From NCBI RefSeq assembly GCF_032854445.1, contig NC_088300.1, positions 60,598,969 through 60,662,968 of the forward strand: a stretch of 64,000 nt of DNA, in the 5' to 3' direction. The DNA comes from Liolophura sinensis (lineage: Eukaryota). Positions 149 to 53,809 of the stretch are shown here, in pieces; the first letter of the stretch is position 1, and each line of letters starts with the position of its first letter. The translations under genes were made by a program, and so were the position numbers. Below the pieces are notes generated by a model. It saw nothing but the letters and a program-made list of their open reading frames with translations, had not been told where the DNA came from and ran no database searches.

Positions 149-269
149 CATCAAGAAGAATGGAAGCAGATTGATGGGGAGTTGTTCAGAATCCTTCATA
201 CTGCTGCAGAGAATGCCTGTAAACAAGGATTGATGACTGCTGAGGAAAGACGTTCTTACCAGAGATCAA
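149..269 (+). CDS. NWD1: NWD1-like (NACHT and WD repeat domain) coding exon, first one resolved in the window (HQEEWKQIDGELFRILHTAAENACKQGLMTAEERRSYQRS)
   Basis: AG acceptor ctttag at 143-148 and gtaag donor at 270. The exon ends in phase 1 and continues in frame into the next exon. There is weak similarity to the human NWD1 N-terminal region. Confidence 0.55.
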
Positions 270-659
270 GTAAGATTTTGTATATAATCCTTTTGAGCTA
301 AGGCCTAAAATTTCACCGAAAAAGTGGATTTGTAGGAACAAATTAATGTGATAATATATGTATACTTCTGGCGATGAAACCTACCTTCAGTACAAACCTC
401 ACACACCTTTCTAAGGTTAATAAGATATTCAATACATACAATTTAGTAATGTTATGTCATTTTACCATATATGTTTTATTCAAGTGTTTTGGGAATCCTC
501 AGACTTGCATATATTTGCATTATTTCAAACTCTTAAGTACATGTAAGTCATTAACAAACTTTACACAATAGTCCATGGTGCATGTGTCACAATATTACAG
601 ATATATATTTGCATTATTTCAAACTCTGACATCTTTGAAAATGAGCATGAGCCTTTATG

Positions 660-845
660 GCCAAGGGTACGTTATTCCAGCTCATAGTGAGCTTCCTCTC
701 CTGTTATATGCAGAAAGGTCTTCCAGCAACCTACAGACGGTTGTAAGTTTCTCTCGGACTCTGTCAGTTTCCTCCCACCATAATGCTGGCTGCCATGGTT
801 AGGCAAAAGTGAAATTTTCTTGAGTATGGTGTAAAACACCGACCA
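660..845 (+). mobile_element. SINE family A partial copy or copies
   Basis: cctacagacggttgtaagtttctct...cctcccaccataatgctggctgcc...cttgagtatggtgtaaaacaccgaccaaag, with a poly-A. Confidence 0.75.
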
Positions 846-1073
846 AAGAAAAAAAAAAAAAAATGAGTCCATGGTGCATGTGTCACAATATTACAGATAT
901 GAGTTTTTTCAAAAGTTCCAATTTTACTAATAAATACATCACATTTATTCAATTATTGCACATAACTACTTCCATAATTTCATAAACATTACAATTTGAG
1001 GATTAGTGCAAATGATATTTGATGATAATATATGCATGTGTTTAGCATCATATGTCCATTTTTGTCTCTGCAG

Positions 1074-1184
1074 TCACTGAGCATGAGGTAACACAGGGCA
1101 TTTTAAATGCTGAGGTGAAGAAAAACAAAGTGCTGTGTTTTACACGAGACATCATTGACCTGGACATCACAGACTCTTTAGCTG
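1074..1184 (+). CDS. NWD1: NWD1-like coding exon (ITEHEVTQGILNAEVKKNKVLCFTRDIIDLDITDSLA)
   Basis: Acceptor tctctgcag and donor gtgggt. The frame continues from the previous exon (phase 1) into the large NACHT exon (phase 1). Confidence 0.55.
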
Positions 1185-3479
1185 GTGGGTTTTAGCTTTT
1201 AATGTGCATGGAATGGACCAAAGCATAATCAAGCACAGTTTAATATTAGCCAGTTCTCACAATAGGATTTGATTTGTTATCACATTGACTGCAGGGTTGT
1301 GTGCAACCAAAAGGAACAATTCAGTCTGGCAGAAGAAAGATATAAGAATACTTTTTGATTAAGTCATTATTTCTATTTTAGTAGTACTATAAATGTTGTT
1401 TTTTTTTTTGTTTTTTTTTGTATTTTTTTTTTTTTTGAAGTGGCTGTAACAGTTGTAAATGAATGCAGAATATTTGAACAAGCATTGTACCATTTAAATA
1501 ATCATCTAAGAATATGTTTTTCTCAACAGTATTGTGACATTTCTACATTGTTAATTTTTCTTACATGTTACAGTAGTTCATACTATGTTGGACCAAGATT
1601 TAAATATTATATGTTTGATGTTATGTGACTGACCCTTTAAAAAGGCCCTGACTGAAATTCTTTTTTCGTGTTTTTACAGATGCCAAATTATTTGATTATT
1701 TTTTTATTTCATTCAATTTTTTTTTTTTTTCGTCCTTTGTTTGAAATGTCACTCTGCTTATACAGGTGAAGGTGCTATTTAGAGATATACATTTTCCTTA
1801 GTACAAAAATCTAGTCTAAGGATGGCTTATATTTACTGATACGCGAAGACTTCTGCCATTTTTTGCACCCGATTATGACATTGTATCTGTATTCACCTAC
1901 CCTATGGGCAAAGCTCCATGCATACGCAATAATAAATATCCAAATTCACATAATACAAGATCTGTCTGCAAGGTAAGGCATTTATTCAGCTTTTGCAACC
2001 ATTGACACTGAACTTTATTTGAGATTTCCTCGGAATTCTCAGTCCAATTCGAAAATAAGGTCTGCTTTGAGCCACTCGCTGCGTGATGTCATCTACCTGA
2101 TTTGACCTAAAGTGGTATGTCAATCACGCTGACGTCTATTGAGAATCTGACTTCGTGGAAAAATATATCACAACATTATTTAAGTATTCCAACGTATAGA
2201 ACAGCTCAGCTCACAAAGGTGGACATCGATGTTGTGAAGTGACAGACGCTTTTAGAATGACAAGAAATTGACGCTATGACTGCGAGGTCTTTTCTTTTCG
2301 TACCCCTTAAATGTCAACCACTTGTGCATGTGCTGAGCATGAAAACAATAGCTGCATGTTTGTGAGTAGGGCTCAGAAAGTGAAATATTATGAAATTACC
2401 ACGCGTATATGCAATGCAGTGAGATAAAACTTGTCCAAAAGACCACAAAGGCATGGAAAGATACCATATTAGGGAGATCCCAAAATTTAAAAAAGGTTAG
2501 TCAGGTGTGTGTATATTTTCTCCCTGTCAAAACTGTCAAAAGGGAGCATGTAGCTGGGAATTAATTTTGTGAACTGTCATTGAGATCACCACTGTCAGAT
2601 GCTTTGGTTGCTAGAAACTGTATCTGTTTACTGATACATTGTTGTGAAATGGAAACAATGGTTGTGACAATAGAAAAGGCATACCTGTGCATTTCTGAGT
2701 TGATGCAGGAAAGTTCACATACTAAGGCAAAGCTAATGTTCAATCCGTTAATCTTCATTAGGTAAAGCTGATGATCTGAGCTCTTTTGGGTTCTTAAACT
2801 CTTCATACTTTTAGACAAGCATGTACATTGAATGATGTTGTAAAGACAGAATAAATGTTTGATCCTTCACATGAAGGAAAAATTCCCTAAATCTCCCAAA
2901 GTTTATTTAAAATTAGGAAAATGGAAACAGATTTGTCAGTATACATTTTATTTTACTAAGCGATGAGGTTCCGCTTCACTCTGTCAAAAGCATCAGCTGG
3001 ACAGGACTTTGGTTATATTTTCTCATGCTCTCACCCCATCTGTACAGGACCTGAAAATGCTAGCACAAACTGTTGGCTTAAATTATGCAGTAGTACTCAT
3101 AAAAATGTTTACCTAGTTTTATTGTAAAAATCTAAGAATATTTATTCTGAGAATTGCCAAATGTTGGGTGATATATTTTAGTACTGTGTTCTGATCATTG
3201 TTAATTAAGTTTAATTGTGATCAGTTATTTGAACAGGATTCTACGATTGTTCTTCCCTTCTGCGAAAAAAAAAAAACACACCTAACCTTCCCTCTTTTGT
3301 TATAAAGGGCTTGTAACATCAAACAAACAATATTTTAATTTTGGCCTTATTAATTTAAGAATACCTATAAAGGTTTCTTCATAGGGTACAATATAGAGTG
3401 AAGAAAGTGAAGTTATGCCATACAGGTACATGTTTGGTGTTATGGTCCATTTAATACACTAACTTTTTTTGTTTTTCAG

Positions 3480-4901
3480 GAAGGTATATTGACATGAATG
3501 CAGATGGCCAGGTGAAAGACCAGTGTGTAGAATTATTGAGACAGCTAAAAACTGAGAAGCTGGATGTTTGCTTAGGTAAGGATCAGCTAATAAAGCATGA
3601 GGTGAGATGGAGACCTGAAGGGGTGATCCCTGAGGACGAGGAACATGCATTGTACCTGGCCACTCTTAGAGAGGTGTTCATTAACAAGATGAAGGATATG
3701 ATCATAGCCTCACTTTCACAGCAGAGGTCAAAAGGTCATGAACTTTATAATGAGGTTCTCCACCATGCTCATTTCTGTAAACGGAAAGGCGAGGATTTTC
3801 AAGGGAGGGAGCAACTCATCAAAGACTTGCAGACGGCCTTCCAGGAAATTTGGGAGACAGAAGATCCAGCAAAAACTGAAGGGAAAGGAAAGGCCAAGAA
3901 GGAAAGTGGCAGAAATCTTGCACGAGAAGAAGATAGTGACATTGGTAGCGATGTTGATGGAGTGCAGGAAGATTCAGAAATGTCTGAATTAGAGCGCCAG
4001 GAAGTGATCAGAGAACAATACGTTGCCATGAAAGATCCGCTGAAACAGTGGGGCATAAGCTTCAGTATGGAAGAGTACAGCGATCTCAGCGACCCAAATA
4101 AAGACGTCAAAGCGGAGTCCCTGAGGACTGTGAGAGAGTCTGTCCACACTAAGCCACTGGTGGTGTATGGAGAGTCAGGATGTGGGAAAACAGCCCTTAT
4201 GGCCAAGCTTGCTGAGGTGATCAAGAAAGAGACACCAGAGTCGGTTGTGTTGGTCAGGTTCCTGGGCACCTCTCCTCAGAGCTCCTCCATCCGTGACACG
4301 CTGGTCAGCATCTGTCACCAGATCCACAAGATCTTCGACCTTGAACCACTCAAGTTTGACCTTCAAGATAACTTCCCGTTTTTGGTGCAGTATTTCTCAG
4401 CTTTGTTGTGGAGGATCAAGTCAGTCTCGAAACCTCTTTACATCCTTCTCGACTCGCTGGATCAGCTTCAGCCCTCTGATCATGCATTTTCATTGAACTG
4501 GTTGCCCACACAGCTGCCTGACAACGTCCATATTGTATTATCCACTTTACCAGAAATGCATGGATTGATGACCACCCTGAAAAATCACCTAATGGAAGAC
4601 AAGCTGTTTTTTGAAGTGTTGCCCTTGCCGATGACAGATGCTAGCGACCTGCTGTTAAAAGTTTGGTCCAGATCAGTGGGTCGACAATTCACACAGCAAC
4701 AACGACAGCTCTTGAAAGACAAAGTATCCTCTGGAGCTGCACCATTGTATCTGAAACTTCTGTTTTATCAGGCCGTGAAATGGCACTCTTATACAGACGT
4801 GGTTGATGTTGACTTGGGATTGACAGCTCAGGCTGCAATCAACAAGCTTTTTGATGACTTAGAGATTCTGCATGGGAAAACACTGATAAGTCATTCCTTT
4901 G
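3480..4901 (+). CDS. NWD1: NWD1-like large exon encoding the NACHT P-loop NTPase domain (Walker A VVYGESGCGKTALMAKLA)
   Basis: A 1.4 kb open frame matches the 3494..5089 ORF track. The P-loop GESGCGKT and the downstream LVRFLGTSPQSS...SICHQI stretch align with human NWD1 LFGPPGIGKTALMCKLAE...LRLLGTSQMSS...SICFQV. Acceptor tttttcag, donor gtgagt at 4902. Confidence 0.85.
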
Positions 4902-4994
4902 GTGAGTACAACTCTACAGCATGTGTAAACTGTGATGTTATATTAAATATGGCTACTTTAGACACAGCCTTAACACTGAAAGAAGGTCTCTGTG

Positions 4995-5255
4995 GCCAAG
5001 TGTTTAGCATGCTAGTGCAGCATAATGGCCCAGAAGCCTCTCACAGTGACTCTGAGTTCAAGCCCAGCTCAAGCTGGCTTCCTCTCTGATCGTATGTGGG
5101 AATGTCTGCAGCAATCTGCAGATGGCCATGGGTTTACCCCGGACTCTGTCCAGTTTCCTTTCACCATATTGCTTGCTGTCATTGTATAAGTTAAATATTC
5201 TTGAGTATGGCGTAAAACTTCAATCATACTGCTATAATGTCATGAACTCAAAGTC
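4995..5255 (+). mobile_element. SINE family A copy in the NWD1 intron immediately after the NACHT exon
   Basis: gagttcaagcccagctcaagctggcttcctctctgatcgtatgtgggaatg...ccatgggtttaccccggactctgtccagtttcctttcaccatattgcttgc...cttgagtatggcgtaaaacttcaatc. It explains the apparent extension of ORF 3494..5089 beyond the real donor at 4902. Confidence 0.85.
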
Positions 5256-5273
5256 GTTCATTCATTCACTCAG

Positions 5274-5983
5274 GCTACATCTCTGCTGCCAAGAATGGCC
5301 TGAGTAACCAGGAAATGGAGCACCTGTTGTCTCTTGATGATGAGGTATTACAGGACATCTACCTGTATCACCTGCCTCCTAACGAACATGTCATCACATT
5401 ACCTTCCCTGATCTGGAGGCGTGTCGTCTACGACTTAGGCGAATACCTTGTGGAAAGACGAGCGGACGGACGCTCCATAAAGGCTTGGTATCACAGGCAG
5501 TTTCAGCAAGTGGCAGAGGAGCGCTATTTGCAAGGCGAGGTGAAGGTCAAAGTTCACTCAGCTATGGTGGAATATTTCCTGGGGGTATGGAGTGAGAAGC
5601 CCAAACCTCTAGATCTGTACAAGATGAAAAAGCGATATTACCCCGATGCCCATCGTCAGGTTCCCGATCAGCCTCTGCTTCTGGGGTCATCCGTGTTTAA
5701 CCTGAGAAAACTGACAGAGCTACCCCATCATCTGGTCTACAGCCAAAAGCTGACAGAGTTCAGGGCCTTGGTTGGCTGTAATTTAGAGTGGTTGTACACG
5801 AAGTGCAAAGCTGTGGGGCTCTCTGAGACACTAGATGATCTACAGCTGGCTATTTCTGCAGGGAAGGAAATGAACAAGGTTGACAAGATAGGTGACATCA
5901 TAGCTGACCTCCAATTTGTGACTGACGTGCTTCTTCTAGGAAATGACAACATTAGGGAAAATCCAGTCAATGTAGGTGTGCAG
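5274..5983 (+). CDS. NWD1: NWD1-like exon (GYISAAKNGLSNQEMEHLLSLDDEVLQDIYLYH...)
   Basis: Strong match to human NWD1 GYIVSSRHGLSEAELKDVLSLDDEVLQDVY...HRQ..V.ERYL. Acceptor cactcag, donor gtgaga. It is in frame with the previous exon after the SINE-containing intron. Confidence 0.85.
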
Positions 5984-7318
5984 GTGAGAAAGTCCCCGTA
6001 TAAATAAAACCTCATTGATTTTGATATCTTCATGGATATGATCTACAATTTCAGTAATGATATACTTGGGTTTATTATTTTATTCTGTTTTGTACATGTT
6101 TTGTTTTAGTGTTTAACAGCTGATAGGAAACATTGCACCTGTAAAAGCAGAGAGGTTTTGGGGTGGAACAAATCAGAGTAAACATTTACCACTTGTACCT
6201 CAAACTTACAATTTAAAGCTGTAGCCAAATCAGTAATTTTGATTGGAGCCTGCTACATGATTGGTCAGCGGCTGATCAGCTATGGCAAAGAAAAATGCAC
6301 TACACATGGTATTGTAAATGAATGATTCAGCATAAGAATGATGTGCGACTGAGTTGATCTGCTAATCAGATTAACGGTAACCTTAAAAACAAAGAGAATG
6401 ATTTTAAGGAAGAGGAATGTATGTCTAAACATGAAAAAAAACATTCTCTTTTGAGGCATATTTTGTATTTTTTAATAACCCACCCGTTTTTCTCATATTT
6501 TCTGTCCATGGGCAGGAATATTCAGAGATCGGAACACATTGGGAACAAGCGATTCTTAAGAAAACTGTAGTTTAAGGTTATTTGCATACCCCAAGAAGAA
6601 AGCCTAGAAGCTTTCTTGTACTGTTAATTGTAAGGCCACCTCGTATACTTCATATTAAGAAATAAAAACCAAGCTTTTCATGTATCACTGGGTCTTTTTT
6701 CATGTAAAACAAGGTTAATCTGTTGGGTGTGGGTGGCCTGAATATTGGTATGACATCATACTGAGCCAGAGTTTCCAGGTTTCATTACAGTAACACACCC
6801 AGATCCCACCATGTGGTTTGCATCCAGTCTTAACAGTATCAAAATAAATGTATTACATACACTGCACATACCCTAATTCCTCAACCTTTTCACATATGAA
6901 AGAGAATACATATTTTTAAATTGATTTTGGAGATAAAACTTTATTGGTTGGATTGGCCAGTTTCAGGGCTTAGCTAAATGTTGTAAAATTGTCAGTCAAA
7001 ACAGAATATAATGCCTTCAGAATATACATGTAGTTGAATAAACAGCTTTGAAACATGAGAAAAGGTTGAAGAATTATGGTATATATTAACCATGTCCGCG
7101 AATGTAAGTTTTATATGTAAGTTTTGTGTATATTTACTTCTGTGTTTTATAGCAAATGTATGCCAAACCTTATAAGATACATTTCTTCAGTATTCACAAC
7201 ATATTGCCTAATCCAGATTTAGCGATAAATTTGTCCTTGTTTTATTTTCTTAGTTGTCGTATATATTATTGGGCCATATTTAGTTTAACATGTACACATG
7301 CATGCATTCTCTTTCCAG

Positions 7319-7505
7319 ATCCTTGGCCAGCTAGGTACAGGTAGCCAGAAGTCCCCTGCCTTACAGACCTTGGTCAAAGAGGCCAGGGAGTGGTGCGGCT
7401 CCCACCCTCACCCTGTACTGGTGCCCCAACACCCCTGTCTGCCCTCACCAGGTGGCCACCTAAGACTGACCATCAATGCCTACTTGCAGACTCCAGGAGC
7501 TTTCC
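7319..7505 (+). CDS. NWD1: NWD1-like exon (ILGQLGTGSQKSPALQTLVKEAREWCGSHPHPVLVPQHP...GGHLRL)
   Basis: Matches human NWD1 QQAQSWFQLCAHPVLVPLGGFLQPPGGPLR. Acceptor ctttccag, donor gtaag at 7506. Confidence 0.8.
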
Positions 7506-8794
7506 GTAAGAAACACCATGCTTATAATAACTTGTGGATGAGATTGTTCTGTTAGCCAGATTTCTGAGCAGAGTGTAACGTAAAATTATTTGACTGCCTG
7601 TAAGCAAAAAGTTGTTGATTATCTGATGTGTTATGATCATTGCGGAGATCTTGATGGTACTAGTTACAGGTTCAGCCTAGTATTTTCGCTAATGCTATAA
7701 ACAGTTGGTTTATGTACATGTATATCCTGATGTACACAGAATATGTTATTGTAATAAACAGAGGGCAGGTAAGGATAAGGGAGGTGGGATGTTGAGGTGT
7801 AGAATAGACCAGAATTAGTCTGGGGGTAGGGGATGGAATTAAATACAAATACTGTTACAGTTATAAACTGAAATATTTAGCTCATTATAACTGGACAATT
7901 TATAATTATATAATTTTGTTTCGGAAATAATTTTCCTGCTACGGCGATGTAGCAGCAGTTTTATAGTCAATGAGGTGGTCAAGGTTATTATTTTCTCTAA
8001 AATTTTTTAACATCGTCCACCTTATTGATTACAAAACTGACGCTCGACACCCATAGTAGGAAACAATATTTCAATTCTGTAACCCTCCCCAAAATGTTGA
8101 ATGCAGGTATTCTCATAATTAAATAGGAAAAACTACAGTCATGTAAATACTTTCACACCCATTCGACGTAGCATTGGAAGATCCCATATTCTAAATTGTG
8201 CACAACGTGCAACGTCACCAGGCAAAACCATTGCTTCTAGACAAAAGGGGTACCAGTCTATATAGTCACTGATTTCAGTTCTGACGAGTATCAAACTGAT
8301 GGCAAATGCAGCTGTTGAAAATAATCTGTGAAGTGTCTTAAACGGTGAAACATTCGTTGGTGCCAGTCTACTTGTACTCTTCAACACTGACACGTTTCTT
8401 ACATGAAATGAACACTGCTGCCAAGTGTTCACATATCTTCTGCAGCACACTGGTTAATACCTGGTATGTGATACTTATCCATTCACTTTTCTCAGTGAAA
8501 ACAACATCCCATTTGAAAAATGGGAAAAAAAATTTGTCCGTTTTATTTATGACGAGCGTTTAATATGTGACCCAATGGGAATAAAAACATGAGATTTATA
8601 GTCTTTGACCAGCTTCCTTATATGTAATACGAAAGCATTGAAGGTTATAGAATTGTAGATTTATTCTTTGTGCTTTTATAAAACTTTTATGATTTTTCTA
8701 GTATCGGGTAGGTGTAAAAACATCTTATGAATGGATGACTTACAGAGAATGGAGGACTTTCTTTCATGATATAAACATTGATGTTTTTGAGCAG

Positions 8795-8984
8795 GTAACT
8801 CATCAATTTTACGCACCTGTCTGGCTCTGCGTGAGGACACTAACAGCCTCCTGGTGGTGGAGATGGGTGGCAAGGTGCACAACTCTGACACCCTCAAAAC
8901 CTATGATCTGGAGGATGGGCAGTCTGTGGCCACAACAGTACTTAGCAACAGGATGTGTAACATCAGACTGATAGACTCAGACAG
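8795..8984 (+). CDS. NWD1: NWD1-like exon at the start of the WD40 region (...TCLALREDTNSLLVVEMGGKVHNSDTLKTYDLEDGQSVATTVLSNRMCNIRLIDSD)
   Basis: Phase-consistent with its neighbours. Acceptor gagcag, donor gttagt at 8985. The 3' end of the exon is the seed of the downstream tandem array. Confidence 0.7.
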
Positions 8985-10260
8985 GTTAGTGTATGCTTCT
9001 TGATGACAGGTGTGAAATGGGCAACTGAATGTGTAACATCAGACTGATTGACTCAGACAGGTTAGTTTGTGCTTCTTGATGGCAGGTGTGAAATGGGCAA
9101 CTGAATGTGTAACATCAGACTGATAGACTTAGACAGGTTAGTGTGTGCTTCTTGATGGCGACAGGTTAGTGTGTGCTTCTTGATCACAGGTGTGAAATGG
9201 GCAACTGAATGTGTAACATCATACTGATAGACTTAGACAGGTTAGTGTGTGCTTCTTGATGACAGGTGTGAAATGGGCAACTGAATGTGTAACATCAGAT
9301 TGATAGACAGGTTAGTGTGTGCTTCTTGATGATGGGTGTGAAATGGGCAACTGAATGTGTAACATCAGATTGATAGACAGGTTAGTGTGCGCTTCTTGAT
9401 GGCAGGTGTGAAATGGGCAACTGAATGTGTAACATCAGACTGATAAACTCAGACAGGTTAGTGTGTGCTTCTTGATGACAGGTGTGAAATGGGCAACTGA
9501 ATGTGTAACATCAGACTGATAGGCTCAGACAGGTTAGTGTGTGCTTCTTGATGACGGGTGTGAAATGGGCAACTGAATGTGTAACATCAGACTGATATAC
9601 TCAGACAGGTTAGTGTGTGCTTCTTGATGACAGGTGTGAAATGGGCAACTGAATGTGTAACATCAGACTGATAGACAGGTGAATATGTGCTTCTTGATGA
9701 TAGGTCTGAATTGAGCAACTTCAGACTGAAAGTCTCAGGTGGGTGTGTGCTTCTTGATGACAGGTGTGAAATGGGCAACTGAATGTGTAACATCAGACTG
9801 ATAGACAGGTGAATATGTGCTTCTTGATGATAGGCCTGAATTGAGCAACTTCAGACTGAAAGACTCAGGTGGGTGTGTGCTTGTTGATTACAGGTGTGAA
9901 ATGGGCAACTGAATGTGTAACATCAGACTGATAGACAGGTGAATATGTGCTTCTTGATGATAGGCCTGAATTGAGCAACTTCAGACTGAAAGACTCAGGT
10001 GGGTGTGTGCTTCTTGATGACAGGTGTGAAATGGGCAACTGAATGTGTAACATCAGACTGATAGACAGGTGAATATGTGCTTCTTGATGATAGGTCTGAA
10101 TTGAGCAGCTTCAGACTGAAAGACTCAGGTGGGTGTGTGCTTGTTGATTACAGGTGTGAAGTGAGCAACTTTAGACTGATAGACTCAGGTGAATGTGTGT
10201 TTATTGATGGCAACAGGATCTGTAACATCAGGCTAATAGACTCAGTGAGGCTGCATGTTC
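8955..10260 (+). repeat. Tandem array, unit about 77 bp, about 16 copies, with diverged double units of about 140 bp from 9640. The unit is the last 30-40 nt of NWD1 exon 6 plus the first 45 nt of the intron, including the gttagt donor.
   Basis: The unit gtgtaacatcagactgatagactcagacag|gttagtgtgtgcttcttgatgacaggtgtgaaatgggcaactgaat recurs directly downstream of the true exon end at 8984. Confidence 0.9.
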
Positions 10261-10395
10261 AGATCGAGCTCTAGCTTACAGCTTCAGCTAATGCTTTAAA
10301 TCGAGATGTTTGTCTGGTACCCAGAAATGTTGATGGGTTACCTCAAGCACCTGTGAATAAATAAATAAAGTAAATTTACTTTCTCACCTGTGCAG

Positions 10396-10553
10396 GTATA
10401 TTCACTTGGAGTGGACAGGTGACAGGGATGATTACAACCCCACCTGTTACCAACGCCTGATCTACACCAGCTCCACCACTCTCGTCCCTCTACCCAAAGA
10501 TATCAGCTGGCTGAGTCTGTCACCAAGTGGAACTACTTTTGCTTACGCTGTTG
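10396..10553 (+). CDS. NWD1: NWD1-like exon (RYIHLEWTGDRDDYNPTCYQRLIYTSSTTLVPLPKDISWLSLSPSGTTFAYAV)
   Basis: Acceptor ctgtgcag, donor gtaagat. The frame continues from the exon ending at 8984 across the repeat-filled intron. Confidence 0.7.
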
Positions 10554-10770
10554 GTAAGATATCTTCTCTTCGCCCTGACACATATTCTGTTCACACCTCA
10601 CAGATACATGCATTGTTTTGAGAGATGGATTAAAGGTGACATTTTTTGATAAAGTTGTTGTTGTTAGTAGGCATCTCCTGTTCTTGTATAAGATTGTTTA
10701 AATTACCTTTTGTTGTAACAATTACTACCGTTGAATTTGCTTTTATTTATTTCATTTTCATTGCTTTTAG

Positions 10771-11671
10771 GAAATAATGTTTTTGTGCGACGCGGTGATT
10801 CCATTCTAAAATCAAGAAGAGTAACAAAGGAAGTAAAATTAAGTCAAACTGATTCCGTAACACACTTGGTTATCTCCCCTGATGACAATTATCTCGTCAC
10901 AACAACACTAGAAAATAAACAGTTTGTCTGGGAACTGGAAACTAACAGCTGTCTCCATGAATTGGGAAGTGCAGAGAAAAGTTTTGCCGGCAGCAGCAAG
11001 GACCTGCACTGCGTTCACATCACCAAAAAGAACTGGTTGATCTGTCCCGGGCTGAATTACAATACAAGGAACCAGATTTATGTGACAAATATAGAAACTG
11101 GGGAAAAAGTGTGTGAATTAAAGGGAGCAAGCAGCCATTACAGTATCGAGTTAATACGTATAAATCCTAGAGAAAATATCGTCCTTCTGGCAACTCGTGA
11201 CGACTGTGTGATCAACGGCATTGAGGATAAGTGGGGGATGCTGTGGAACCTGGAATCTGGAACGTTGTTGTCACAGTGCTCTGCTGTCAATGGCCCTTAC
11301 ACTGAGGTCAAACTGGTCGAGGATGGTGACGATATGTTTGTTATCTTGTGTGAAAAGCGCAGCCCTGTCATCAATATCCTGTGGGCTGGATCGGAGTCGG
11401 ATCCGTTAGAGACGGCGGTTTTGGTCCATGTTCTGGTAGCCCACAATGATTCTATCATACAGCTGGTCCTGAACGAGGACATACTGGTGTCAGCTTCACA
11501 AGACAACACTGTGAAGGTGTGGGACTTCAGAGAGATCAGGGCGGAGCTTCAGAGCCGGGTGCAAACAGCGGAATCACCAGAGGAAGCCAAGTTTTGCCCA
11601 TCCTTAGAGGAAGGAAAGCTACCAGTGCCGGGTAGGGATCAGATCAAAACCACAGCCATGGTAGTCTGCGA
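10771..11671 (+). CDS. NWD1: NWD1-like WD40-repeat exon (about 300 aa, ...NTVKVWDF...)
   Basis: Long open frame matching the 10731..11675 ORF track. Acceptor cttttag, gtaagt donor at 11672. The exon ends in phase 2 and continues in frame into the exon at 12970. Confidence 0.7.
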
Positions 11672-12969
11672 GTAAGTAATCTAAGGAGAATCACGATTGA
11701 TTGCAGGAATGATTTAAATAGTTATGTTTGATTTAGGTTTTATCTGATACTATTACATAATGCATTAGTCACATGGTTACTCAGTGATAGGATACAGAAA
11801 TATATGGTGTCAGTAACCTTTACTATATATTTACATGTGTCCTGTCTCTTAGTAACCAAGTTATTAGTTTATTATAATATTTTTCGGGATAATATTACAT
11901 GTGTATACATGTACATTTGTGGTCAACATCAAATATTATACTAGCAAGCAATAACATGTCACCCAAAAATCGGTTTAGTCTCGCAATACAAAAGATGGCA
12001 TGGGATACCATTACTTCTGTGAGGAACTTAAATTTTTTTCTTTATAGTGTGGTAAAACAAGGATGGGAGGAATTGAGTCAGTTTCAAACCAGGTAGATTA
12101 ATAAAGGCCAGGTGCATTTTTCTGTGTGGAAGTTGCTAGTTTCATCGTGATTCTTTTAGACTTTCATTGTTGTGGTGTTGTACACAGTGCATGTAAATGT
12201 TATGTTATATTTCACTTAAAGGGAAAGACCTCTAAAAATCGAAGTAGGCATCACCAGGTGGACCGCTAAAAACTTATGCTCAAATATATTTACATTCATT
12301 TTTTTAGATTTTTGAGAAAAGAATTAAAGGGGCTCAATCATTTAACTTCTAAGGAGGGTTTTGTGGACCATACCATCAGAGGTTATGAACTCTGACATCA
12401 CAGGAAGTTTGTCCAACTCTAATCTTGACAATGAATGTTGGAATAACTCATTTTACCCATGAGTGAAAGATTACTGAAATAATGTTCCCAATAATTCCTT
12501 CATTCTGGTGAACATAAGAAAAAATGGTGATGTGACGTCAGAATTGCTGGATACCATCAGTGTGGCTCATAAAACCCACCATTGTTTTCAGATATTTGAA
12601 TGCCTTTCAACACTGTCAAAAAAATCTAAAAAATAAATGAAAGTATTTTTACACATAGTTTTCAATTGTCTTTATGAGGAACCTTACTTCATGTTTTAGC
12701 TTTCTTTTACTTTAGAGTTGACACCCTGGTGGTAACTGAGCCTGGGAATCTCAGACACTTCACCAATATCAAACCTATATCAAAATATAATCAGTATATT
12801 ATGTTCACTTGTGGCTTTAAGTCAGGAGGTGTCATAAACTCCTGGTGAAGTGTCATGGTTTCCCCGGTCTCTACCCAGTTTTCCCCACCCATAAATTTGA
12901 CTCTTATCGTGAATAAAATAAGCACCATATCAAAGACAGTAAATTGAGTACTCATTTTCACTCTTCCAG

Positions 12970-13151
12970 GAACCGAGCTGTGGTTGGCAGCAAGGATGGG
13001 TTCCTGATATTTTATGACCTGGTCACCTGCACACAGTTGGGTCACATCAGGCCATGCACAACTGAGATCATTGGTATACTGGTTACGAAGAACAAACAGC
13101 ATGTTGTGGCTGCATCTCCTAAGTCACTTTTCATACTGGAATCTAATGGAG
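12970..13151 (+). CDS. NWD1: NWD1-like WD40 exon (NRAVVGSKDGFLIFYDLVTCTQLGHIRPCTTEIIGILVTKNKQHVVAASPKSLFILESNG)
   Basis: Acceptor ctcttccag, donor gtaaac. Phase-consistent with its neighbours. Confidence 0.7.
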
Positions 13152-13304
13152 GTAAACATAGTGGGTACTGCCTAGATTTGCTAATGCATTCCCTAAAACT
13201 GCTAACCTTTGTATCAAAAAGTGTGCAGGGCTGAACATAAACTTCATACAAGTGGTATTGATGGATTCTTTGGGTAAATCTGAGACGAGTTAAAGGTATT
13301 CATA

Positions 13305-14595
13305 TGGGTGGGTCATATTCAGGTGGGTCTGAGGGATTGTTACAGCTCGGTCTGAGGGATTTGTACAAATGGGTCATTGCAGGGGTAGAAATGACGTCTG
13401 TCTACCTGTTGGCGACAGGCAATTTTTATCGGCGACAGGTCACAAAAAAACTCAGCTGTTGCAGCGACAGTTAGACACAAAAAGTTTTCAATCATGTTTA
13501 AGTCAATATCCATGCATGTCTGTGTTTCTGAAGTCTGTATATTTACTAGGCCTTTCCATAATCAGAATGTTGATGCAAAACTTCGTCATGTTCGGCCCAA
13601 ACAAGTGAACACTGTTAGGACGTCATCTAGTGGACAAGGCCTTCGTCAACGAACCTATCGCCTTTATGCTTTCAATTCCGAGACCAAACATACCTTCAAC
13701 ATTGAAGAACGCGCTTCGGTTATTACAGCAACAGCAAAATCAGATCTGCAAAAAGCCGTTTTTGTTACGTAAAATGCCTTTTGTAACACTTTTTCTTAAG
13801 GGTCCACAGCTATCCTGGAAGGAATAGTGTCTACAGGTGCCACTCAACCTGAACTAGAGAACAGTCAAAGGAGAGCAGCGAATCAATCAAAAGTTGAAGT
13901 GTCACCCATGACTCAGAAGTTTCTCAACATTGCATTTGCAGAAGATTAAATCAAATAAATAAATAACAAAATGTGAAATTAATATATATAGTCTCGGCCT
14001 CTTCCTAACGCCCAAAATTGTACAGCTCTAAGACCACATTGTTTACTTTTCTCGCTCGAGGACTATGCGTGGCATTGCAGGTGTAAAGGGGAACAACTCA
14101 AGACACACATAAATCTAAACGCACACGACAGAGTGGTTTTCCTCGGTCGTTTCCCTTGAATGGGAAGCGCATGCATACGCAAGCACAGACTGAACTGTCG
14201 GAAGTAAGTTTCAATTTAATTGATCGACTGTGCAGAAGTCCCAATCATGACAGAATATTGAATAAAAAGGAAAATGGTACTGAAACCAAATATTCTTGTA
14301 ACACAGTAGACTGATATTGCTTTGCCAAGGTGACGGTGTTGACAGAAAATTTTATGTTCACAAAAATGTGACAATGGCGACTTTCTAAAAGTAACACTGA
14401 TGGGGACAGGTGACTGGTAGAAAAAAAATCTACCGGTTTCTGTGACAGGCGGTTTTAAAAAAACACCTCTTGGTCTGAGGAATTTGTACAGCTGGGTCAG
14501 AGGGATTTTGTACATCTGGGTCAGAGGGATTTGTACCGCTTTGTCCGAGGGATTTGTACCGCTTGCTCTCAGGGATTTGTACCGCTTGGGGTGAA
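13305..14595. mobile_element. Putative transposable element or composite repeat in an NWD1 intron, with a CpG-rich unique core flanked by related end blocks
   Basis: Shared blocks (gg)tctgagggatttgtacag repeated 2-4 times plus a gacaggtSac motif at 13310-13445 and 14400-14590. The core 13450-14400 is unusually CpG-rich for this window and carries unassigned ORFs 13494..13772 and 13630..13827. Confidence 0.35.
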
Positions 14596-14737
14596 AGATA
14601 CATATAGGCATAATTACTGTACATGTACTCTGATTAGAAAATGTGCCGGTTGTAAATATACCGGTTCAGTGAAATGTAGTTATGTCAAAAATACCAGAGA
14701 CTTGTGTCTGTATCTGTGAAAAGATTTCAGGGTCAAA

Positions 14738-14900
14738 ATGGGGCCTCCTTAGCTCAGTTGGTTTACACGCTAGCGCAGCGTAATGACCCAGGAGCCTCTC
14801 ACCAATGCAGTCGCTGTGAGTTCAAGTCCAGCTCATGCAGGCTTCCTCTCCGGCCGTGTGTGGGAAGGTTTGTCCATAAGCTAGCACAAATGTCAGTTTT
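14738..14900 (+). mobile_element. tRNA-derived SINE, family A, copy with intact tRNA-like head (ggggcctccttagctcagttggtt...gagttcaagtccagctc)
   Basis: Box A-like TAGCTCAGTTGG and box B-like GAGTTCAAGTCC. The body ctcatgcaggcttcctctccggccgtgtgtgggaaggt is shared with more than 12 other copies. Confidence 0.8.
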
Positions 14901-14951
14901 GTGGTAAACTGTCCACACGTGTGCTTATACCTGAATCACATCTTTCTTACA

Positions 14952-15074
14952 GATACTATTATCAGGGAAATCACTGCCCCAAAGAAAATCAACTGTTTAT
15001 CAGAGGCAAGTGACATCATAGTGGCTGGTCATGGAGGGATGGAAGCATATGGTTATGCCTGGAATCTACACACA
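14952..15074 (+). CDS. NWD1: NWD1-like exon (DTIIREITAPKKINCLSEASDIIVAGHGGMEAYGYAWNLHT)
   Basis: Acceptor ttcttacag, donor gtgtgt. Phase-consistent. Confidence 0.65.
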
Positions 15075-15639
15075 GGTGTGTCTGCAAGCAGTTCATAAAG
15101 GAATCCAAGCTTATATTTAGGAGCAAATCTGTTCAGCTAGCATTTACAACATGCTAATGACACTTCCGATATAAGAATATAAGATCTCACTAGCATGGCA
15201 CTAACTCACAACTACATGTAGCATACACAGGCTTCCAGGTTTCCTGGACCATTTCACTGATCTGCTAATGTAGAGTTGCTTCACTAGTTTGCTGATATCG
15301 TCATCATTTGCATTGTTTGTTGTTGTTTATTTTTTTTTTTTAGATAAAAATATTACTGCCCAGTCAGGGTACTTGAAATGTGTGTGTAAGTGTTTTCAGC
15401 AGGTTAATGTATTAGGACTACGTGTACAACATTATCATTTATATCCAGTCTTTGGGATTCGTATCACAATAACATACATCTGTTTGCTTTGCACACTGGT
15501 TCTACGACTGTCAAGTCCCTCACATATTCTCATATTTTAATATGTATTTTTTTTCTTACTGTTATGTAGATCTTCACTTCTTAGAACTTGCTGATTTTAT
15601 TGTTTTTCTAAAATGGTACATCATGTTTTTGGATTTCAG

Positions 15640-15710
15640 GTGAATTGCTTGCCAAGTTTCAAGGACTGTATGGTTTTCACTGGATAGCCATTAATTCCAA
15701 AGGAACTCAT
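15640..15710 (+). CDS. NWD1: NWD1-like exon (GELLAKFQGLYGFHWIAINSKGTH)
   Basis: Acceptor ggatttcag, donor gtatgt. Phase-consistent. Confidence 0.65.
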
Positions 15711-16149
15711 GTATGTATATCTTCTAACTACCTCTTATTTCAGTGGTTGGAAACCTGTGGCCATACACATAAGTATTTCAGTGTGTCAACATATACCTTT
15801 ACAAATTACTGTCACCAAGACAGTAATATTTATGCATGTGGTCTTAACTTTAAAGGTTAAGCAAAACCTGTCAGAGTCTTGCGTGTGTATATATTTTTCT
15901 TCTGCTATGAATTTCACTAAACATATCTGGGTTTTCACAGATTACACCAAGAACTTTGTTTTCCATATTCTTGATGTCCTGGAAAAGTTACCTTCAGAAA
16001 TAATGTGACAAAACATAGGGTATGGGCCTGGTCATTATTCATGATGTAAAGTCTGTTCTTTTCTGTTTTATCTCATTGTAATTTTAGTGAAGCCACCTCA
16101 TGAGTCAGGGATTCCCTCTCCCTCAATGAGGCCTTGGTGACAGTAAGTG

Positions 16150-16300
16150 GTCGTTTTTGCTGGTTTGGCAGCTTGCAAAATCATGAAGAGTTACTTGACC
16201 AGCGTCTGTATATCATAAGGGAAAGTTCGTTAGTAGCTTGCCAAGGGTCAGTGGTTTACCCTGGGCTCTCCCCACCAAACTAACCACCATTGTAGCAGTG
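16150..16300 (+). mobile_element. SINE family A-related variant copy
   Basis: gggtcagtggtttaccctgggctctccccaccaaactaaccaccattgtagcagtgaaaacttcttgagtgtggcattaaacaacaatc. Confidence 0.55.
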
Positions 16301-16431
16301 AAAACTTCTTGAGTGTGGCATTAAACAACAATCAGTCGAACCATACCTGTGTATACTACAAGGTTTGATGTTGAAAAAACAAATCAGATATTTCAAACTC
16401 TCCAGTATTTTTAATATCTTTCACTTTTCAG

Positions 16432-17121
16432 CTTGGAGGTTCATTCTTTGAGTATCCAGTCCTCTATTCAGTGGAGTCAGGTGATATCCTGACAGCCCTG
16501 GACAAGGCTGATGTGATGATGTCATCACAGTCCTTCCTGGTGTTTAGCCCAGATGACCGCTACCTCGCTGGCGGATCCACTGACGGGAGCGTCCGGGTTA
16601 TTGATGGCCAAAAGGGAAAATACCTCTGCCGCTTTCAGCAACTCTCCTCAGCCATACAGGGCTGTTTTTCACCAGACAGCAATATTTTGGTCACGACCGG
16701 TTTCCGCACGTTGTTCTTGTGGTCAATGGAACAAGGTACTTTGTTATGGTCACTTTCTCGGCACCACGACTTTGTGGTCAAGCTGAAGTTTTGTCTGGAT
16801 GGACGGTATCTGGTGACCTCCTCCAAAGACAAGAGAATTGTGGTTTGGGATTGGAAGCATTTATACTCAGTCTGTGATCACATGGCTCACTGTCCAATAG
16901 ATGTCATGGATGTGGCAGACGATCTGACATCGGTTATCTATGCTCCCGATAGCGTCAGTTATGTAGCTATTCTCAAACCTAACCCGTACATGACCCAAAA
17001 GTTGAATGGTCAGATACAGCACACTCTGGCATCTCGTTTCCATGACGCCCAAGCTGTGGCCCTCTCATTCTCCAGTCAGGGCCTGACAAGGGAGACAACT
17101 AGGGCTTGTATTCTCCTGTAA
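16432..17121 (+). CDS. NWD1: NWD1-like terminal coding exon, WD40 repeats and stop (…TRACILL*)
   Basis: A 230-codon open frame matches the 16471..17121 ORF track, with WD40 motifs such as LVTSSKDKRIVVWDW. The C-terminus ACILL* resembles the human NWD1 C-terminus SQVCLIV. AATAAA at 17211-17216 lies about 90 nt downstream. Confidence 0.75.
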   Translation, partial: LGGSFFEYPVLYSVESGDILTALDKADVMMSSQSFLVFSPDDRYLAGGSTDGSVRVIDGQKGKYLCRFQQLSSAIQGCFSPDSNILVTTGFRTLFLWSMEQGTLLWSLSRHHDFVVKLKFCLDGRYLVTSSKDKRIVVWDWKHLYSVCDHMAHCPIDVMDVADDLTSVIYAPDSVSYVAILKPNPYMTQKLNGQIQHTLASRFHDAQAVALSFSSQGLTRETTRACILL

Positions 17122-23770: not shown

Positions 23771-23923
23771 ACAACAACTGCATATATTAATGACATTACC
23801 ACTGACAACTGAAAACATGAGAAAGAAATTGTAAACAGCTATGATTTATATGCATTCAATGTGGAAACTGTTCAACAAAATTAAGAGATTTCACACTGAG
23901 AAGAACGTGTACAGAGGTGTGCT

Positions 23924-24140
23924 GACAAACAACTGAGCACTCACCAGATCTTGTATGCTTACAAACAACTGAGCACTCACCAGATCTTGTATGTTTACAA
24001 ACAACTGAGCACTCACCAGATCTTGTATGCTTACAAACAACTGAGCACTCACCAGATCTTGTATGCTTACAAACAACTGAGCACTCACCAGATCTTGTAT
24101 GCTTACAAACAACTGAGCACTCACCAGATCTTGTATTTCC
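23924..24140 (-). repeat. Tandem array of six 36-bp units duplicating the MVP exon 22 donor junction (ATACAAGATCTG|gtgagtgctcagttgtttgtaagc)
   Basis: Perfect or near-perfect 36-nt periodicity, contiguous with the real donor at 24125. The minus-strand frame stays open through the array, as in ORF 23891..24205. Confidence 0.9.
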
Positions 24141-25579: not shown

Positions 25580-25680
25580 TTAGTTGCGATCTCAATGGCC
25601 ATCTGAACAGACTTCATCAAACTGTCTCTCATCTTGAGGTCTACTGGTTCTATACTCTGGATGTCAATACTTGTGACCAC
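25580..25680 (-). CDS. MVP: MVP exon 20 ([33 protein letters not shown])
   Basis: Matches human [34 protein letters not shown]. The acceptor side abuts a junction-derived tandem array. Confidence 0.9.
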
Positions 25681-26310
25681 CTGGTAACAGAATACCATGG
25701 ATTTTAATACATGTGACCAACTGATAACAGAATAGTTCTGGATATCAATACTTGTGACCAAATGATAATAGATTACTCTGGAATTCAATACATGTGATCA
25801 ACTGATAACAGAATAGTTCTGGATATCAATACTTGTGAAACCCTGGTAACAGATTACTCTGGATGTCAATACATGTGACCAACTGATAACAGAATAGTTC
25901 TGGACATCAATACTTGTGACCAAATGATAATAGATTACTCTGGAATTCAATACATGTGATCAACTGATAACAGAATAGTTCTGGATATCAATACTTGTGA
26001 CCACCTGGTAACAGATTACTCTGGATGTCAATACATGTGACCAACTGATAACAGAATAGTTCTGGACATCAATACTTGTGACCAAATGATAACAGATTAC
26101 TCTGGATGTCAATACATGTGACCAACTGATAACAGAATAGTTCTGGACATCAATACTTGTGACCAAATGATAATAGATTACTCTGGATTTCAATACATGT
26201 GATCAACTGATTACAGAATAGTTCTGGATATCAATACTTGTGACCAAATGATAACAGATTACTCTGGATTTCTATACTTGAGATCAACTGATAAAAGAAT
26301 ACTGTGGATG
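25681..26310 (-). repeat. Tandem array, about 40-bp units in an 80-bp higher-order repeat, about 15 copies. It duplicates the first 29 nt of MVP exon 20 plus the acceptor ttaccag.
   Basis: Units such as attactctggatgtcaatacatgtgaccaa|ctgataacag recur upstream, in the gene sense, of the real acceptor at 25680/25681. Confidence 0.85.
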
Positions 26311-26603
26311 TCGATGCTTGTGTGATGGCCTGGTAAAAAAAATAGGTATCATTACTGTCATTACTCTGGATGTCAATACTTGTGACCAACCGATAACAGA
26401 ATACTTCTGGATATCAATATTTGTAACCACCTGACAAGAGAATACTTCTGGGTATTAATACTTGTCAGCATATGACAACAAAATACTTCTGGATATCAAT
26501 TCTTGTGACATAACAAATGATAAGAGAACACTCCATATAACATTACATGTACATACACGTATTACTGGCACTTACTGGCAAGCCCCATCAGACTTCAACC
26601 TAC

Positions 26604-32184: not shown

Positions 32185-35178
32185 TAACAAGGACCTCATC
32201 ACTAACATACATGTACATCTATCTCTCATCAATGATGTTAAGCTCAATAGGGGGAATATATTCACAAGGACCTCATCACTAACATACATGTACATCTATC
32301 TCTCATCAATGATGTTAATCTCAATAGGGGGAATATATTCACAAGGACCTCATTACTTACATACATGTACATCTATCTCTCATCAATGATGTTAATCTCA
32401 ATAGGGGGAATATATTCACAAGGACCTCATCACTAACATACATGTACATCTATCTCTCATCAATGATGTTAAGCTCAATAGGGGGAATATATTCACAAGG
32501 ACCTCATCAATTACATACATGTACATCTATCTCTCATCAATGATGTTCAGCTCAAAGAGGGGAATATATTCACAAGGACCTCATCAATTACATACATGTA
32601 CATCTATCTCTCATCAATGATGTTAAGCTCAATAGGGGAATATATTCACAAGGACCTCATCATTAACATACATGTACATCTATCTCTCATCAATGATGTT
32701 AATCTCAATAGGGGGAATATATTCACAAGGACCTCATCACTAACATACACGTACATCTATCTCTCATCAATGATGTTAAGCTCAATAGGGGGAATATATT
32801 CACAAGGACCTCATCAATTACATACATGTACATCTATCTCTCATCAATGATGTTAAGCTCAATAGGGGGAATATATTCACAAGGACCTCATCAATTACAT
32901 ACATGTACATCTATCTCTCATCAATGATGTTAATCTCAATAGGGGGAATATATTCACAAGGACCTCATTACTTACATACATGTGCATCTATCGCTCATCA
33001 ATGATGTTAAGCTCAATAGGGGAATATATTCACAAGGACCTCATCACTAACATACATGTACATCTATCTCTCATCAATGATGTTAAACTCAATAAGGGGA
33101 GTATATTCACAAGGACCTCATCAATTACATACATGTACATCTATCTCCCATCAATGATGTTAAGCTCAATAGGGGGAATATATTCACAAGGACCTCATCA
33201 CTTACATACATGTACATCTATCTCTCATCAATGATGTTAATCTCAATAGGGGGAATATATTCACAAGGACCTCATAACTTACATACATGTGCATCTATCT
33301 CTCATCAATGATGTTAAGCTCAATAGGGGGAATATATTCACAAGGACCTCATTACTTACATACATGTACATCTATCTCTCATCAATGATGTTAAGCTCAA
33401 TAGGGGAATATATTCACAAGGACCTCATCACTAACATACACGTACATCTATCTCTTATCAATGATGTTAAGCTCCATAAGAGGAATATATTCACAAGGAC
33501 CTCATCACTTACATACATGTACATCTATCTCTCATCAATGATGTTAAGCTCAATAGGGGGAATATATTCACAAGGACCTCATCACTAACATACATGTGCA
33601 TCTATCTCTCACCAATGATGTTAAGCTCCATAAGAGGAATATATTCACAAGGACCTCATCAGTAACATACATGTACATCTATCTCTCATCAATGATGTTA
33701 ATCTCAACAGGGGGAATATATTCACAAGGACCTTATCAGTAACACACACGTACATCTATCTCTCATCTCATCAATGATGTTAATCTCAATAGGGGGAATA
33801 TATTCACAAGGACCTCATCACTAACATACATGTACATCTATCTCTCATCAATGATGTTAAGCTCAAAGAGGGGAATATATTCACAAGGACCTCATCACTA
33901 ACATACATGTGCATCTATCTCTCCCCAATGATGTTAAGCTCAATAGGGGGAATATATTCACAAGGACCTCATCAATTACATACATGTACATCTATCTCTC
34001 ATCAATGATGTTAATCTCAATAGGGGGAATATATTCACAAGGACCTCATCACTTACATACATGTACATCTATCTCTTATCAATGATGTTAAGCTCAAAGA
34101 GGGGAATATATTCACAAGGACCTCATCAATTACATACATGTACATCTATCTCTCATCAATGATGTTAATCTCAATAGGGGGAATATATTCACAAGGACCT
34201 CATCACTAACATACATGTGCATCTATCTCTCACCAATGATGTTAAGCTCAATAGGGGGAATATATTCACAAGGACCTCATCAATTACATACATGTACATC
34301 TATCTCTCATCAATGATGTTAATCTCAATAGGGGGAATATATTCACAAGGACCTCATCACTAACATACATGTACATCTATCTCTTATCAATGATGTTAAG
34401 CTCAAAGAGGGGAATATATTCACAAGGACCTCATCACTAACATACATGTGCATCTATCTCTCACCAATGATGTTAAGCTCAATAGGGGGAATATATTCAC
34501 AAGGACCTCATCAATTACATACATGTACATCTATCTCTCATCAATGATGTTAATCTCAACAGGGGGAATATATTCACAAGGACCTCATCACTTACATACA
34601 TGTACATCTATCTCTCACCAATGATGTTAACCTCAATGGGGGAATATATTCACAAGGACCTCATCAATTACATACATGTACATCTATCTCTCACCAATGA
34701 TGTTAAGCTCAATAGGGAGAATATATTCACAAGGACCTCATCACTTACACACATGTGCATCTATCTCTCACCAATGATGTTAAGCTCAATAGGGGGAATA
34801 TATTCACAAGGACCTCATCAATTACATACATGTACATCTATCTCTCATCAATGATGTTAAGCTCAATAGGGAGAATATGTTCACAAGGACCTCATCACTT
34901 ACACATATGTGCATCTATCTCTCATCAATGATGTTAAGCTCAATAGGGGGAATATATTCACAAGGACCTCATCAATTACATACATGTACATCTATCTCTC
35001 ATCAATGATGTTAACCTCAATGAGGGGATATATTCACAAGGACCTCATCACTAACATACCGGGATACATGTATATACACAAGGACTTCATCATGAACATA
35101 CACTTTACCTCTGGTCAATGATGTTAACCTCAATAAGAGGATATATTCACAAGGACCTCATCACTAACATACATGTAC
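32185..35178 (-). repeat. 3 kb tandem array, 78-bp unit, about 39 copies. It duplicates the 3' 45 nt of MVP exon 11 plus the donor and the first 22 nt of the intron.
   Basis: Minus-strand unit gtccttgtgaatatattccccctattgagcttaacatcattgatgagag atagat gtacatgtatgtaattgatgag. It is contiguous with the true exon 11 donor at 35179. The plus-strand ORFs inside the array are periodic artefacts. Confidence 0.9.
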
Positions 35179-35248
35179 CTCTTGTCAATGATGTTAACCT
35201 CAATTGGGGGGATATATTCACAAGGACCTCTAATCATCCATCTGTCAC
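35179..35248 (-). CDS. MVP: MVP exon 11 (GDRWMIRGPCEYIPPIEVNIIDK)
   Basis: Matches human [25 protein letters not shown]. The donor gtacat abuts the 3 kb junction-derived tandem array. Confidence 0.8.
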
Positions 35249-53700: not shown

Positions 53701-53809
53701 GAAAAAAAGGGAAATACGGATATGCTGCCTTTACAGATAGCTGGGGAAATGGCTAGTGTTTCAATTTCAGTTCCATGCATTACCTGTAATATTTCATTTT
53801 CAGAGACTT

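Follow-up and report, generated by a model that had tools for sequence, protein, structure and literature searches.

A probable 'mirage'-type minisatellite at an exon/intron junction of an NWD1-like gene in the chiton Liolophura sinensis

A 64,000-nt stretch of the genome of the chiton Liolophura sinensis (assembly GCF_032854445.1, contig NC_088300.1, positions 60,598,969 to 60,662,968 of the forward strand), referred to here as the window and numbered from its first letter, contains at 8945-10250 a tandem array whose opening unit is the real exon/intron junction of an NWD1-like gene. We consider it likely that this array is a 'mirage'-type minisatellite, in which a boundary-spanning segment was tandemly duplicated and later expanded inside the intron, and that it is a neutral expander of that intron. 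'Mirages' are a named class of tandem duplications of exon/intron boundaries, known from the amphioxus globins BflGb6/9, TnC and PGBD5 (PMC3087553, PMC3902484). The case rests on the architecture of the array, on the age of the junction from which it was copied, and on arrays of the same kind in a neighbouring gene and in orthologous loci.

Results

Architecture of the array

Tandem Repeats Finder (TRF) reported a period of 76 at 8945-9676 (9.4 copies), a period of 130 at 9606-10170 (4.3 copies, 96% matches) and a period of 60 at 9659-10209, and a second repeat-finding run recovered the same two families. The array was split into units by anchoring on GCTTCTTGATG, and the units were aligned with MAFFT. 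In this alignment similarity to the repeat can be followed from 8945 (GCAAC...), within the exon, to beyond the donor at 8984|8985; the founding unit has 76 nt, of which 40 belong to the exon and 36 to the intron. An earlier sequence-only reading of the window had described a unit of the last 30-40 nt of the exon fused to the first 45 nt of the intron, repeated about 16 times in an array that begins exactly at the junction. The exon terminus and the donor do belong to the unit, in the corrected proportions given above, but the first unit spans the junction instead of starting there, and the copy number was slightly low, as there are 19 donor-bearing units (one with the real donor and 18 with pseudo-donors) and one degenerate terminal copy.

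Along the intron the 76-nt unit degenerates to variants of 70 and 60 nt and to a higher-order repeat of 130 nt. The exon part of the unit corresponds to the exon-terminal 40 nt at 8945..8984 (+; GCAACAGGATGTGTAACATCAGACTGATAGACTCAGACAG), which were delimited by unit alignment and encode S-NRMCNIRLIDSD(R), residues that are collinear with those of orthologues. The first domain of the array (8945..9618, +) comprises the junction copy and nine units, first six of 76 nt, then a truncated one of 28 nt and finally two of 70 nt, with CAG|GTTAGT present in every unit. The second domain (9619..10198, +) consists of four copies of the 130-nt higher-order repeat, followed by one extra 60-nt unit; each 130-nt copy joins a 70-nt unit with CAG|GTGAAT to a 60-nt unit with CAG|GTGGGT, and the copies are 96-98% alike. 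Unit splitting and alignment placed the terminal degenerate copy at 10199..10250 (+; GGCAACAGGATCTGTAACATCAGGCTAATAGACTCAGTGAGG), where the donor is lost and the exon-type CAGGAT is kept. The array thus takes up about 90% of the 1411-nt intron (8985-10395), only the last ~145 nt of which lie outside it, in a unique 3' tail (10251..10395, +) with the polypyrimidine tract and acceptor (ctttctcacctgtgcag).

Two diagnostic motifs of 31 and 27 nt occurred 12 and 7 times, respectively, in the array and nowhere else in the 64 kb, and the chance expectation for both, from 100 shuffles, was 0. The confinement of these motifs to the array indicates that the repeat is local and not a dispersed element, and an origin from a dispersed satellite or a transposable element was ruled out by their absence from the rest of the window.

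The copies at the two edges of the array differ consistently from those inside it. Both edge copies, one in the exon and the other at the end of the array, show GCAACAGGAT (CAGGAT), whereas all 12 of the interior copies that retain the segment have GCAACTGAAT (CTGAAT). This contrast is the signature of interior homogenisation with the boundary copies left out, and the same edge effect, in which boundary copies escape homogenisation, has been reported for amphioxus mirages (PMC3087553). Later unit variants are deletions of 6, 12 and 5 nt that were amplified as the 130-nt unit. The exon-derived parts of the copies contain stops, mostly nonsynonymous changes and a 6-nt deletion, and are therefore without coding constraint.

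The host gene and its authentic junction

The NWD1-like gene lies on the plus strand from 149 to 17121, and its product has NACHT and WD40 regions and probably an NWD1-type winged helix. Exons were mapped by hand at 3494-4901, 5274-5983, 7319-7505, 8795-8984, 10396-10553 and 10771-11671, with the frame open throughout. The NACHT NTPase domain PF05729 scored 42.9 bits (cutoff 26.7) and WD40 domain matches were found in the product, while the NWD1-type winged-helix domain PF25469 scored 22.1 bits against a cutoff of 27 with a single-exon fragment as query, and is present in precomputed annotations of the orthologues. An initial search with exons c-f returned remote WD40 proteins only and no orthologues; these were found later by an exhaustive protein search of representatives combined with a cluster look-up. 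Full-length matches of 33-37% identity carry the names NWD1 or NWD1-like in Sinanodonta and Mytilus, and the closest homologues that bear a name are annotated as 'NACHT and WD repeat domain-containing protein 1', which, with the NACHT and WD40 matches, upholds the earlier assignment of the gene, here called NWD1-like. The only close relative, the Logan contig L001, showed 84% amino acid identity, with coverage of the NACHT exon only.

The 1184-residue exon model is identical (100%, with zero mismatches) to residues 263-1446 of XP_064601251.1, annotated as 'uncharacterized protein LOC135467407' of Liolophura sinensis, and the junction is thereby confirmed. The protein reads ...RLIDSDR|YIHLEW... 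across 8984|10396, in agreement with the RefSeq model, which uses the first donor, and the exon boundary at 8984/8985 that had been read from the letters alone is identical to that of the model. The coding exon in question (8795..8984, +; ..RNSSILRTC...SNRMCNIRLIDSD(R)), supported by its open frame and by RefSeq identity, ends in phase 2. It is followed at 8985..8990 (+) by the real 5' splice site GTTAGT, whose 9-mer CAGGTTAGT has 8/9 matches to CAGGTAAGT, and the next coding exon, (R)YIHLEWTGDRDDYNP..., lies at 10396..10553 (+; RefSeq identity). The label 'exon 6' given to the former denotes only the sixth coding exon visible in the window, since the coding sequence for residues 1-180 lies further upstream.

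The array was copied from an ancestral junction

The chiton protein was aligned with seven further proteins, among them those of the bivalves Sinanodonta, Ylistrum, Mya and two Mytilus species and of the annelid Owenia. All of the aligned orthologues are collinear over the 13 repeated codons and the junction, with zero indels. Four orthologous loci were also fetched and their exons mapped in order to place the intron, and in Ylistrum, Mya, Sinanodonta and Owenia, as in the chiton, a phase-2 intron splits the codon before a conserved Tyr/Phe. The collinear codons and the shared phase-2 intron show that this exon end and this intron are older than the mollusc-annelid split. As both are ancestral, the array is secondary, having been copied from the junction, and did not create the intron, and we regard its derivation from the exon junction as demonstrated. 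The orthologous intron in the scallop, the unionid and the annelid has no junction array and consists of unique sequence instead, and that of Mya arenaria (locus L003, 13964-15340) holds unrelated AT-rich arrays that reach the acceptor. Missing from the scallop, unionid and annelid intron, the array is not conserved at that depth.

The reverse direction, in which an intronic satellite was exonised or the intron itself was made by tandem duplication (the Rogers model), appears extremely unlikely, although the exon end and the repeat unit share one sequence, as it would require, and it has been suggested that introns can be gained through mirage duplications (PMC3087553). The 13 codons match the bivalve and annelid orthologues residue for residue, with no insertion, and the unit was found nowhere else in the window; exonisation of a repeat is ruled out by the indel-free orthologue alignment. 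Intron gain of the Rogers type is likewise rejected, because Ylistrum, Mya, Sinanodonta and Owenia all have a phase-2 intron in the very same codon, and in three of these four other lophotrochozoans that intron holds unique sequence in place of this repeat.

Splice signals within the array

The intron contains 18 pseudo-donors, nine of which are identical to the real CAGGTTAGT, five being CAGGTGAAT and four CAGGTGGGT; the nine further CAGGTTAGT 9-mers lie between 9061 and 9609. A pyrimidine-rich pseudo-acceptor had also been claimed for each copy, and its AG is kept at 15 of the 17 pseudo-acceptor positions (tgcttcttgatgacag|G). The suggestion that the implied 51-nt mini-exon would bring a TGA into frame was borne out, as in the exon frame this pseudo-exon reads AG|G TGT GAA ATG GGC AAC TGA. 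Translated in the exon frame, the 51-nt and the 45-nt pseudo-exons both yield RCEMGN*, and those of 35 nt cause a frameshift. If the real donor is read through, the first stop comes at 9001, and any read-through or use of a downstream donor runs into a stop. The spacing from a pseudo-donor to the next pseudo-acceptor is 25 nt, which is too short for an intron, so that inclusion of a pseudo-exon would require one unit or more to be skipped.

Two observations concern the layout of these signals. The change from CAGGAT to CTGAAT (9026-9031 and the equivalent positions) is the only fixed difference between the exon and the interior copies, and it gives the pseudo-exons their in-frame TGA, which may be due to chance or to weak selection for harmless mis-splicing. 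At 9003-9015, and in each unit, the pseudo-acceptor directly abuts a GT (GATGACAG|GTGTGA), giving an AG|GT layout like that of a recursive splice site. Read from the letters, an exon spliced to such a pseudo-acceptor would recreate CAG|GTGTGA.

It could be envisaged that the array acts as a set of decoys or poison exons, the pseudo-sites being used at some rate to yield transcripts with premature termination codons that enter nonsense-mediated decay, or holding U1 snRNP, and in either case tuning how strongly the NWD1-like gene is expressed. Another form of this reading would have the AG|GT pseudo-acceptors (GACAG|GTGTGA) serve as recursive splice sites for a stepwise removal of the array, and finds its support in the CAG|GTGTGA that would be recreated. 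The 18 pseudo-donors of consensus quality, the 15 pseudo-acceptors with AG, the frameshift of the 35-nt pseudo-exons, and a TGA placed in frame in the 51- and 45-nt ones by the only fixed exon-interior difference are all in its favour. We nevertheless judge such a role unlikely. The RefSeq model uses the first donor, the 25-nt gap between pseudo-donor and pseudo-acceptor is too short as an intron, and the pyrimidine tract of the pseudo-acceptors is weak. Moreover, differently built arrays, one of them on the acceptor side, in an unrelated neighbouring gene and in the orthologues (described below) argue for a generic mutational origin, and equivalent sites in amphioxus and in human F7 give no aberrant mRNA (PMC3087553, PMC3902484, PMC1557585). 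By analogy with these cases, the notion of poison exons or alternative donors is probably wrong, or describes a minor effect.

Junction arrays in a neighbouring gene

The neighbouring gene on the minus strand, at about 21047-43880, is that of the major vault protein (MVP), and three of its introns hold junction-derived arrays, at donors and at an acceptor. The earlier count of four such arrays in the window is thus correct. The first of the three, array C (23920..24136, -), has a 36-nt unit composed of the last 12 exon nt (ATACAAGATCTG) and the first 24 intron nt (GTGAGTGC...), present in six copies that start from the real donor. Array D (25656..26506, -) has a unit of 41/81 nt that joins the 3' end of the intron (TTCTGTTACCAG) to the start of the exon (GTGGTCACAAGTATTGACATCCAG, VVTSIDIQ), in ~20 copies, and terminates at the real acceptor. 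Array E (32187..35230, -), again at a donor, spans 3 kb, with ~39 copies of a 71-nt (later 77-nt) unit made of the last ~50 exon nt (RGPCEYIPPIEVNIIDKR) and 20 intron nt (GTACATGTATGTTAGTGATG). In alignments with Lingula and other species, the exon parts repeated in the MVP arrays correspond to conserved MVP residues. Of the 6.5 kb of tandem-repeat DNA in two genes of the window, junction arrays make up 5.4 kb.

The remaining tandem arrays that were inspected, F at 40046-40210 and G, H and I at 53-61 kb, contained no recognisable junction. Two 41-nt arrays, at 53221-53703 (x12) and 54869-55487 (x15), have no obvious exon junction in their units. The largest array of the window, at 57993-61416 (85 nt x41), has a GC content of ~49% against ~38% around it and stops ~50 nt upstream of a probable minus-strand exon, without any similarity to a junction. 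Translated on the minus strand (..YPAEDTRHDVAHP..), it is similar to an open reading frame (ORF) at 22210-22473 (..YHAEDTRQDTPSSHIILTPGQP..), a likeness that suggests a dispersed repeat family.

Other observations relate to the MVP introns and to the order of the genes. A 20-nt array (GGCTCAGTTGTTGTCCAACT) at 23308-23748 (-) shares its MVP intron with array C, and GCTCAGTTGTT is common to it and to the intron part of array C's unit; it may be a second-generation derivative of C's junction copy, in which case this entire intron would derive from repeats. Plus-strand ORFs at 24306-24548 and 28142-28490, in different MVP introns, have the common motif ..TQEYFTY..A..IMVGGN.. and are probably copies of an interspersed element. 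The gene order of the window is NWD1-like (149-17121, +), MVP (21047-43880, -) and a WD40 gene at 46823-~49800 (+), which from our own reading of the ORF translations we take to be BUB3-like.

Junction arrays in orthologous loci

The orthologous NWD1-like genes of Ylistrum balloti, Owenia fusiformis and Sinanodonta woodiana have junction-spanning arrays of their own, in other introns. In the orthologous loci these comprise six copies of a 32-nt unit with TGGAACCAAG|GTAAGT (L002, 21442-21652), five copies of a 73-nt unit (L004, 25407-25780), a 28-nt array at an acceptor (L005, 9153-9798) and three copies of a 98-nt unit (L005, 44747-45058). A junction-touching array in Mya (L003, 15105-15340) is a marginal case. 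The same architecture at MVP donors and acceptor, and at other introns of the orthologues, thus indicates a general mutational process and not a gene-specific function.

The frequency of such arrays was compared with a null in which array seeds fall uniformly along genes, with each array collapsed to one unit. In the window's two genes there were 4 junction-spanning arrays among 10 against 0.66 expected (P=0.0024), a test that is post hoc, as the window was picked because of these arrays. In the four orthologous loci, 5 of 34 arrays touched a junction against 2.05 expected (P=0.045; P=0.14 without the marginal Mya case), and because the exon counts based on high-scoring segment pairs (HSPs) are underestimates, this enrichment is suggestive at most.

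The arrays in other species also bear on the integrity of the chiton assembly. Tandem repeats are a known source of assembly errors, and one amphioxus mirage was mis-assembled in the draft genome (PMC3087553), so that a repeat that was collapsed or over-expanded, or haplotypes that were stitched together, had to be considered. We find such an artefact very unlikely, given the ordered interior of the NWD1 array, with its diverged edges, truncated unit, two sub-domains and 130-nt higher-order repeat, and given the same kind of array in independent assemblies of four other species. The public L. sinensis assembly, to which the 100% protein identity links the window, was, moreover, built from PacBio HiFi reads with a mean length of 8.3 kb, which exceeds the length of any of the four arrays (PMC11068029, PMC12441733).

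Discussion

The sequence of events that we favour for the NWD1-like gene starts with a segment of ~76 bp, made up of 40 nt of conserved exon and 36 nt of an ancient phase-2 intron, which is repeated head to tail with the real junction as the first copy. The array would have grown through replication slippage or unequal exchange; its interior copies have been homogenised and its edge copies have stayed ancestral, and deletion variants were amplified as the 130-nt higher-order repeat. The spliceosome presumably picks the most upstream donor, the sole one that preserves the reading frame, and the 18 downstream pseudo-donors would either be silent or lead to transcripts that contain premature stops and are broken down. 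In that case the array would be a selectively neutral expander of its intron and not a regulatory device.

Several points weigh against this explanation. The silence of the pseudo-sites is a supposition drawn from analogy and from the RefSeq model. The pseudo-donors have 7-8/9 consensus matches, compared with 5-7/9 for the other real donors of the gene, and being equal to or better than these, some of them could plausibly be used. That the only fixed exon/interior difference creates an in-frame TGA could hint at selection and not neutrality. Finally, junction arrays exceed the uniform-seeding null, an excess that one would not readily expect from a process both purely neutral and uniform. A speculative extension, to which we give a rather low probability, would be that splice junctions are preferred seeding sites of minisatellites in lophotrochozoan genes, either mutationally, through fragility linked to transcription or splicing, or selectively, with U1-binding decoys or recursive AG|GT sites that are tolerated or useful. 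If so, mirages would systematically drive the expansion of introns outside the cephalochordates, a role not described so far.

The closest known counterparts are those of amphioxus. PMC3087553 credits the first description of mirages to work on Adh3 of amphioxus (Canestro et al. 2002, Nucleic Acids Res 30:2871). The amphioxus examples affect 5' and 3' boundaries, have units of 10-160 bp and duplicate the AG/GT signals; their genes give normal mRNA by RT-PCR, and their length is unstable (PMC3087553, PMC3902484). The chiton arrays resemble them in their head-to-tail boundary-spanning units, in having the real boundary as a terminal copy, in a unit size within the range, in the involvement of both 5' and 3' boundaries with duplicated AG/GT, in the homogenised interior and in the occurrence of several per gene region. 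As judged from its letters, then, the array in the NWD1-like gene has every structural feature that defines a mirage, a class that the earlier reading had not recognised. In contrast to the amphioxus cases, the host is a mollusc, the arrays reach 19-39 copies and up to 3 kb as opposed to 3-6 copies in the globins, and the NWD1 array has a 130-nt higher-order sub-repeat. Splicing fidelity and length instability were shown in amphioxus; the chiton array was read from a single haplotype. Our literature search found no mollusc reports of mirage-like arrays, although their absence from it is no proof.

A parallel with respect to splicing is offered by intron 7 (IVS7) of human F7, which holds a 37-bp variable number tandem repeat (VNTR) with its first element placed across the boundary between exon 7 and IVS7 (Borensztajn et al. 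2006, PMC1557585). There, site usage was tested with minigenes; identical pseudo-donors are silent, and selection of the most upstream site by 5'-to-3' scanning is the best-supported mechanism for this (PMC1557585). As in the chiton, a real donor is followed by several sequence-identical pseudo-donors; in contrast, the F7 case is mammalian with a handful of repeats, and the chiton unit adds an AG pseudo-acceptor, thereby defining potential pseudo-exons. A 31-bp VNTR of human CBS spans the exon 13/intron 13 boundary and is polymorphic, with reported effects on splicing or enzyme activity. It shares with the chiton array a donor copy in each unit, but is small, human and polymorphic. The Rogers model and the proposal of 'introns from tandem arrays' ascribed to Zhuo et al. 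in 2007, to both of which PMC3087553 refers, are said to explain intron gain or remodelling by tandem duplication of AGGT segments. Here too, tandem duplication adds splice signals and the repeat turns intronic; the chiton intron, however, predates its array, which enlarged the intron and did not create one.

The chiton array would thus represent the mirage class in a new phylum, in an unusually large and clustered form, and it accounts for the repeat content of about 90% in a 1.4-kb intron. The 18 perfect-looking decoy donors are a caution for gene predictors and for RNA-seq aligners. Such loci are natural experiments on how the spliceosome chooses among identical copies, and both RNA-seq data (PMC11068029) and HiFi reads of L. 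sinensis are public. Four arrays within 64 kb of the chiton genome, together with further ones in bivalve and annelid loci, suggest that mirages are not a peculiarity of amphioxus and may be a common route of intron growth in invertebrates.

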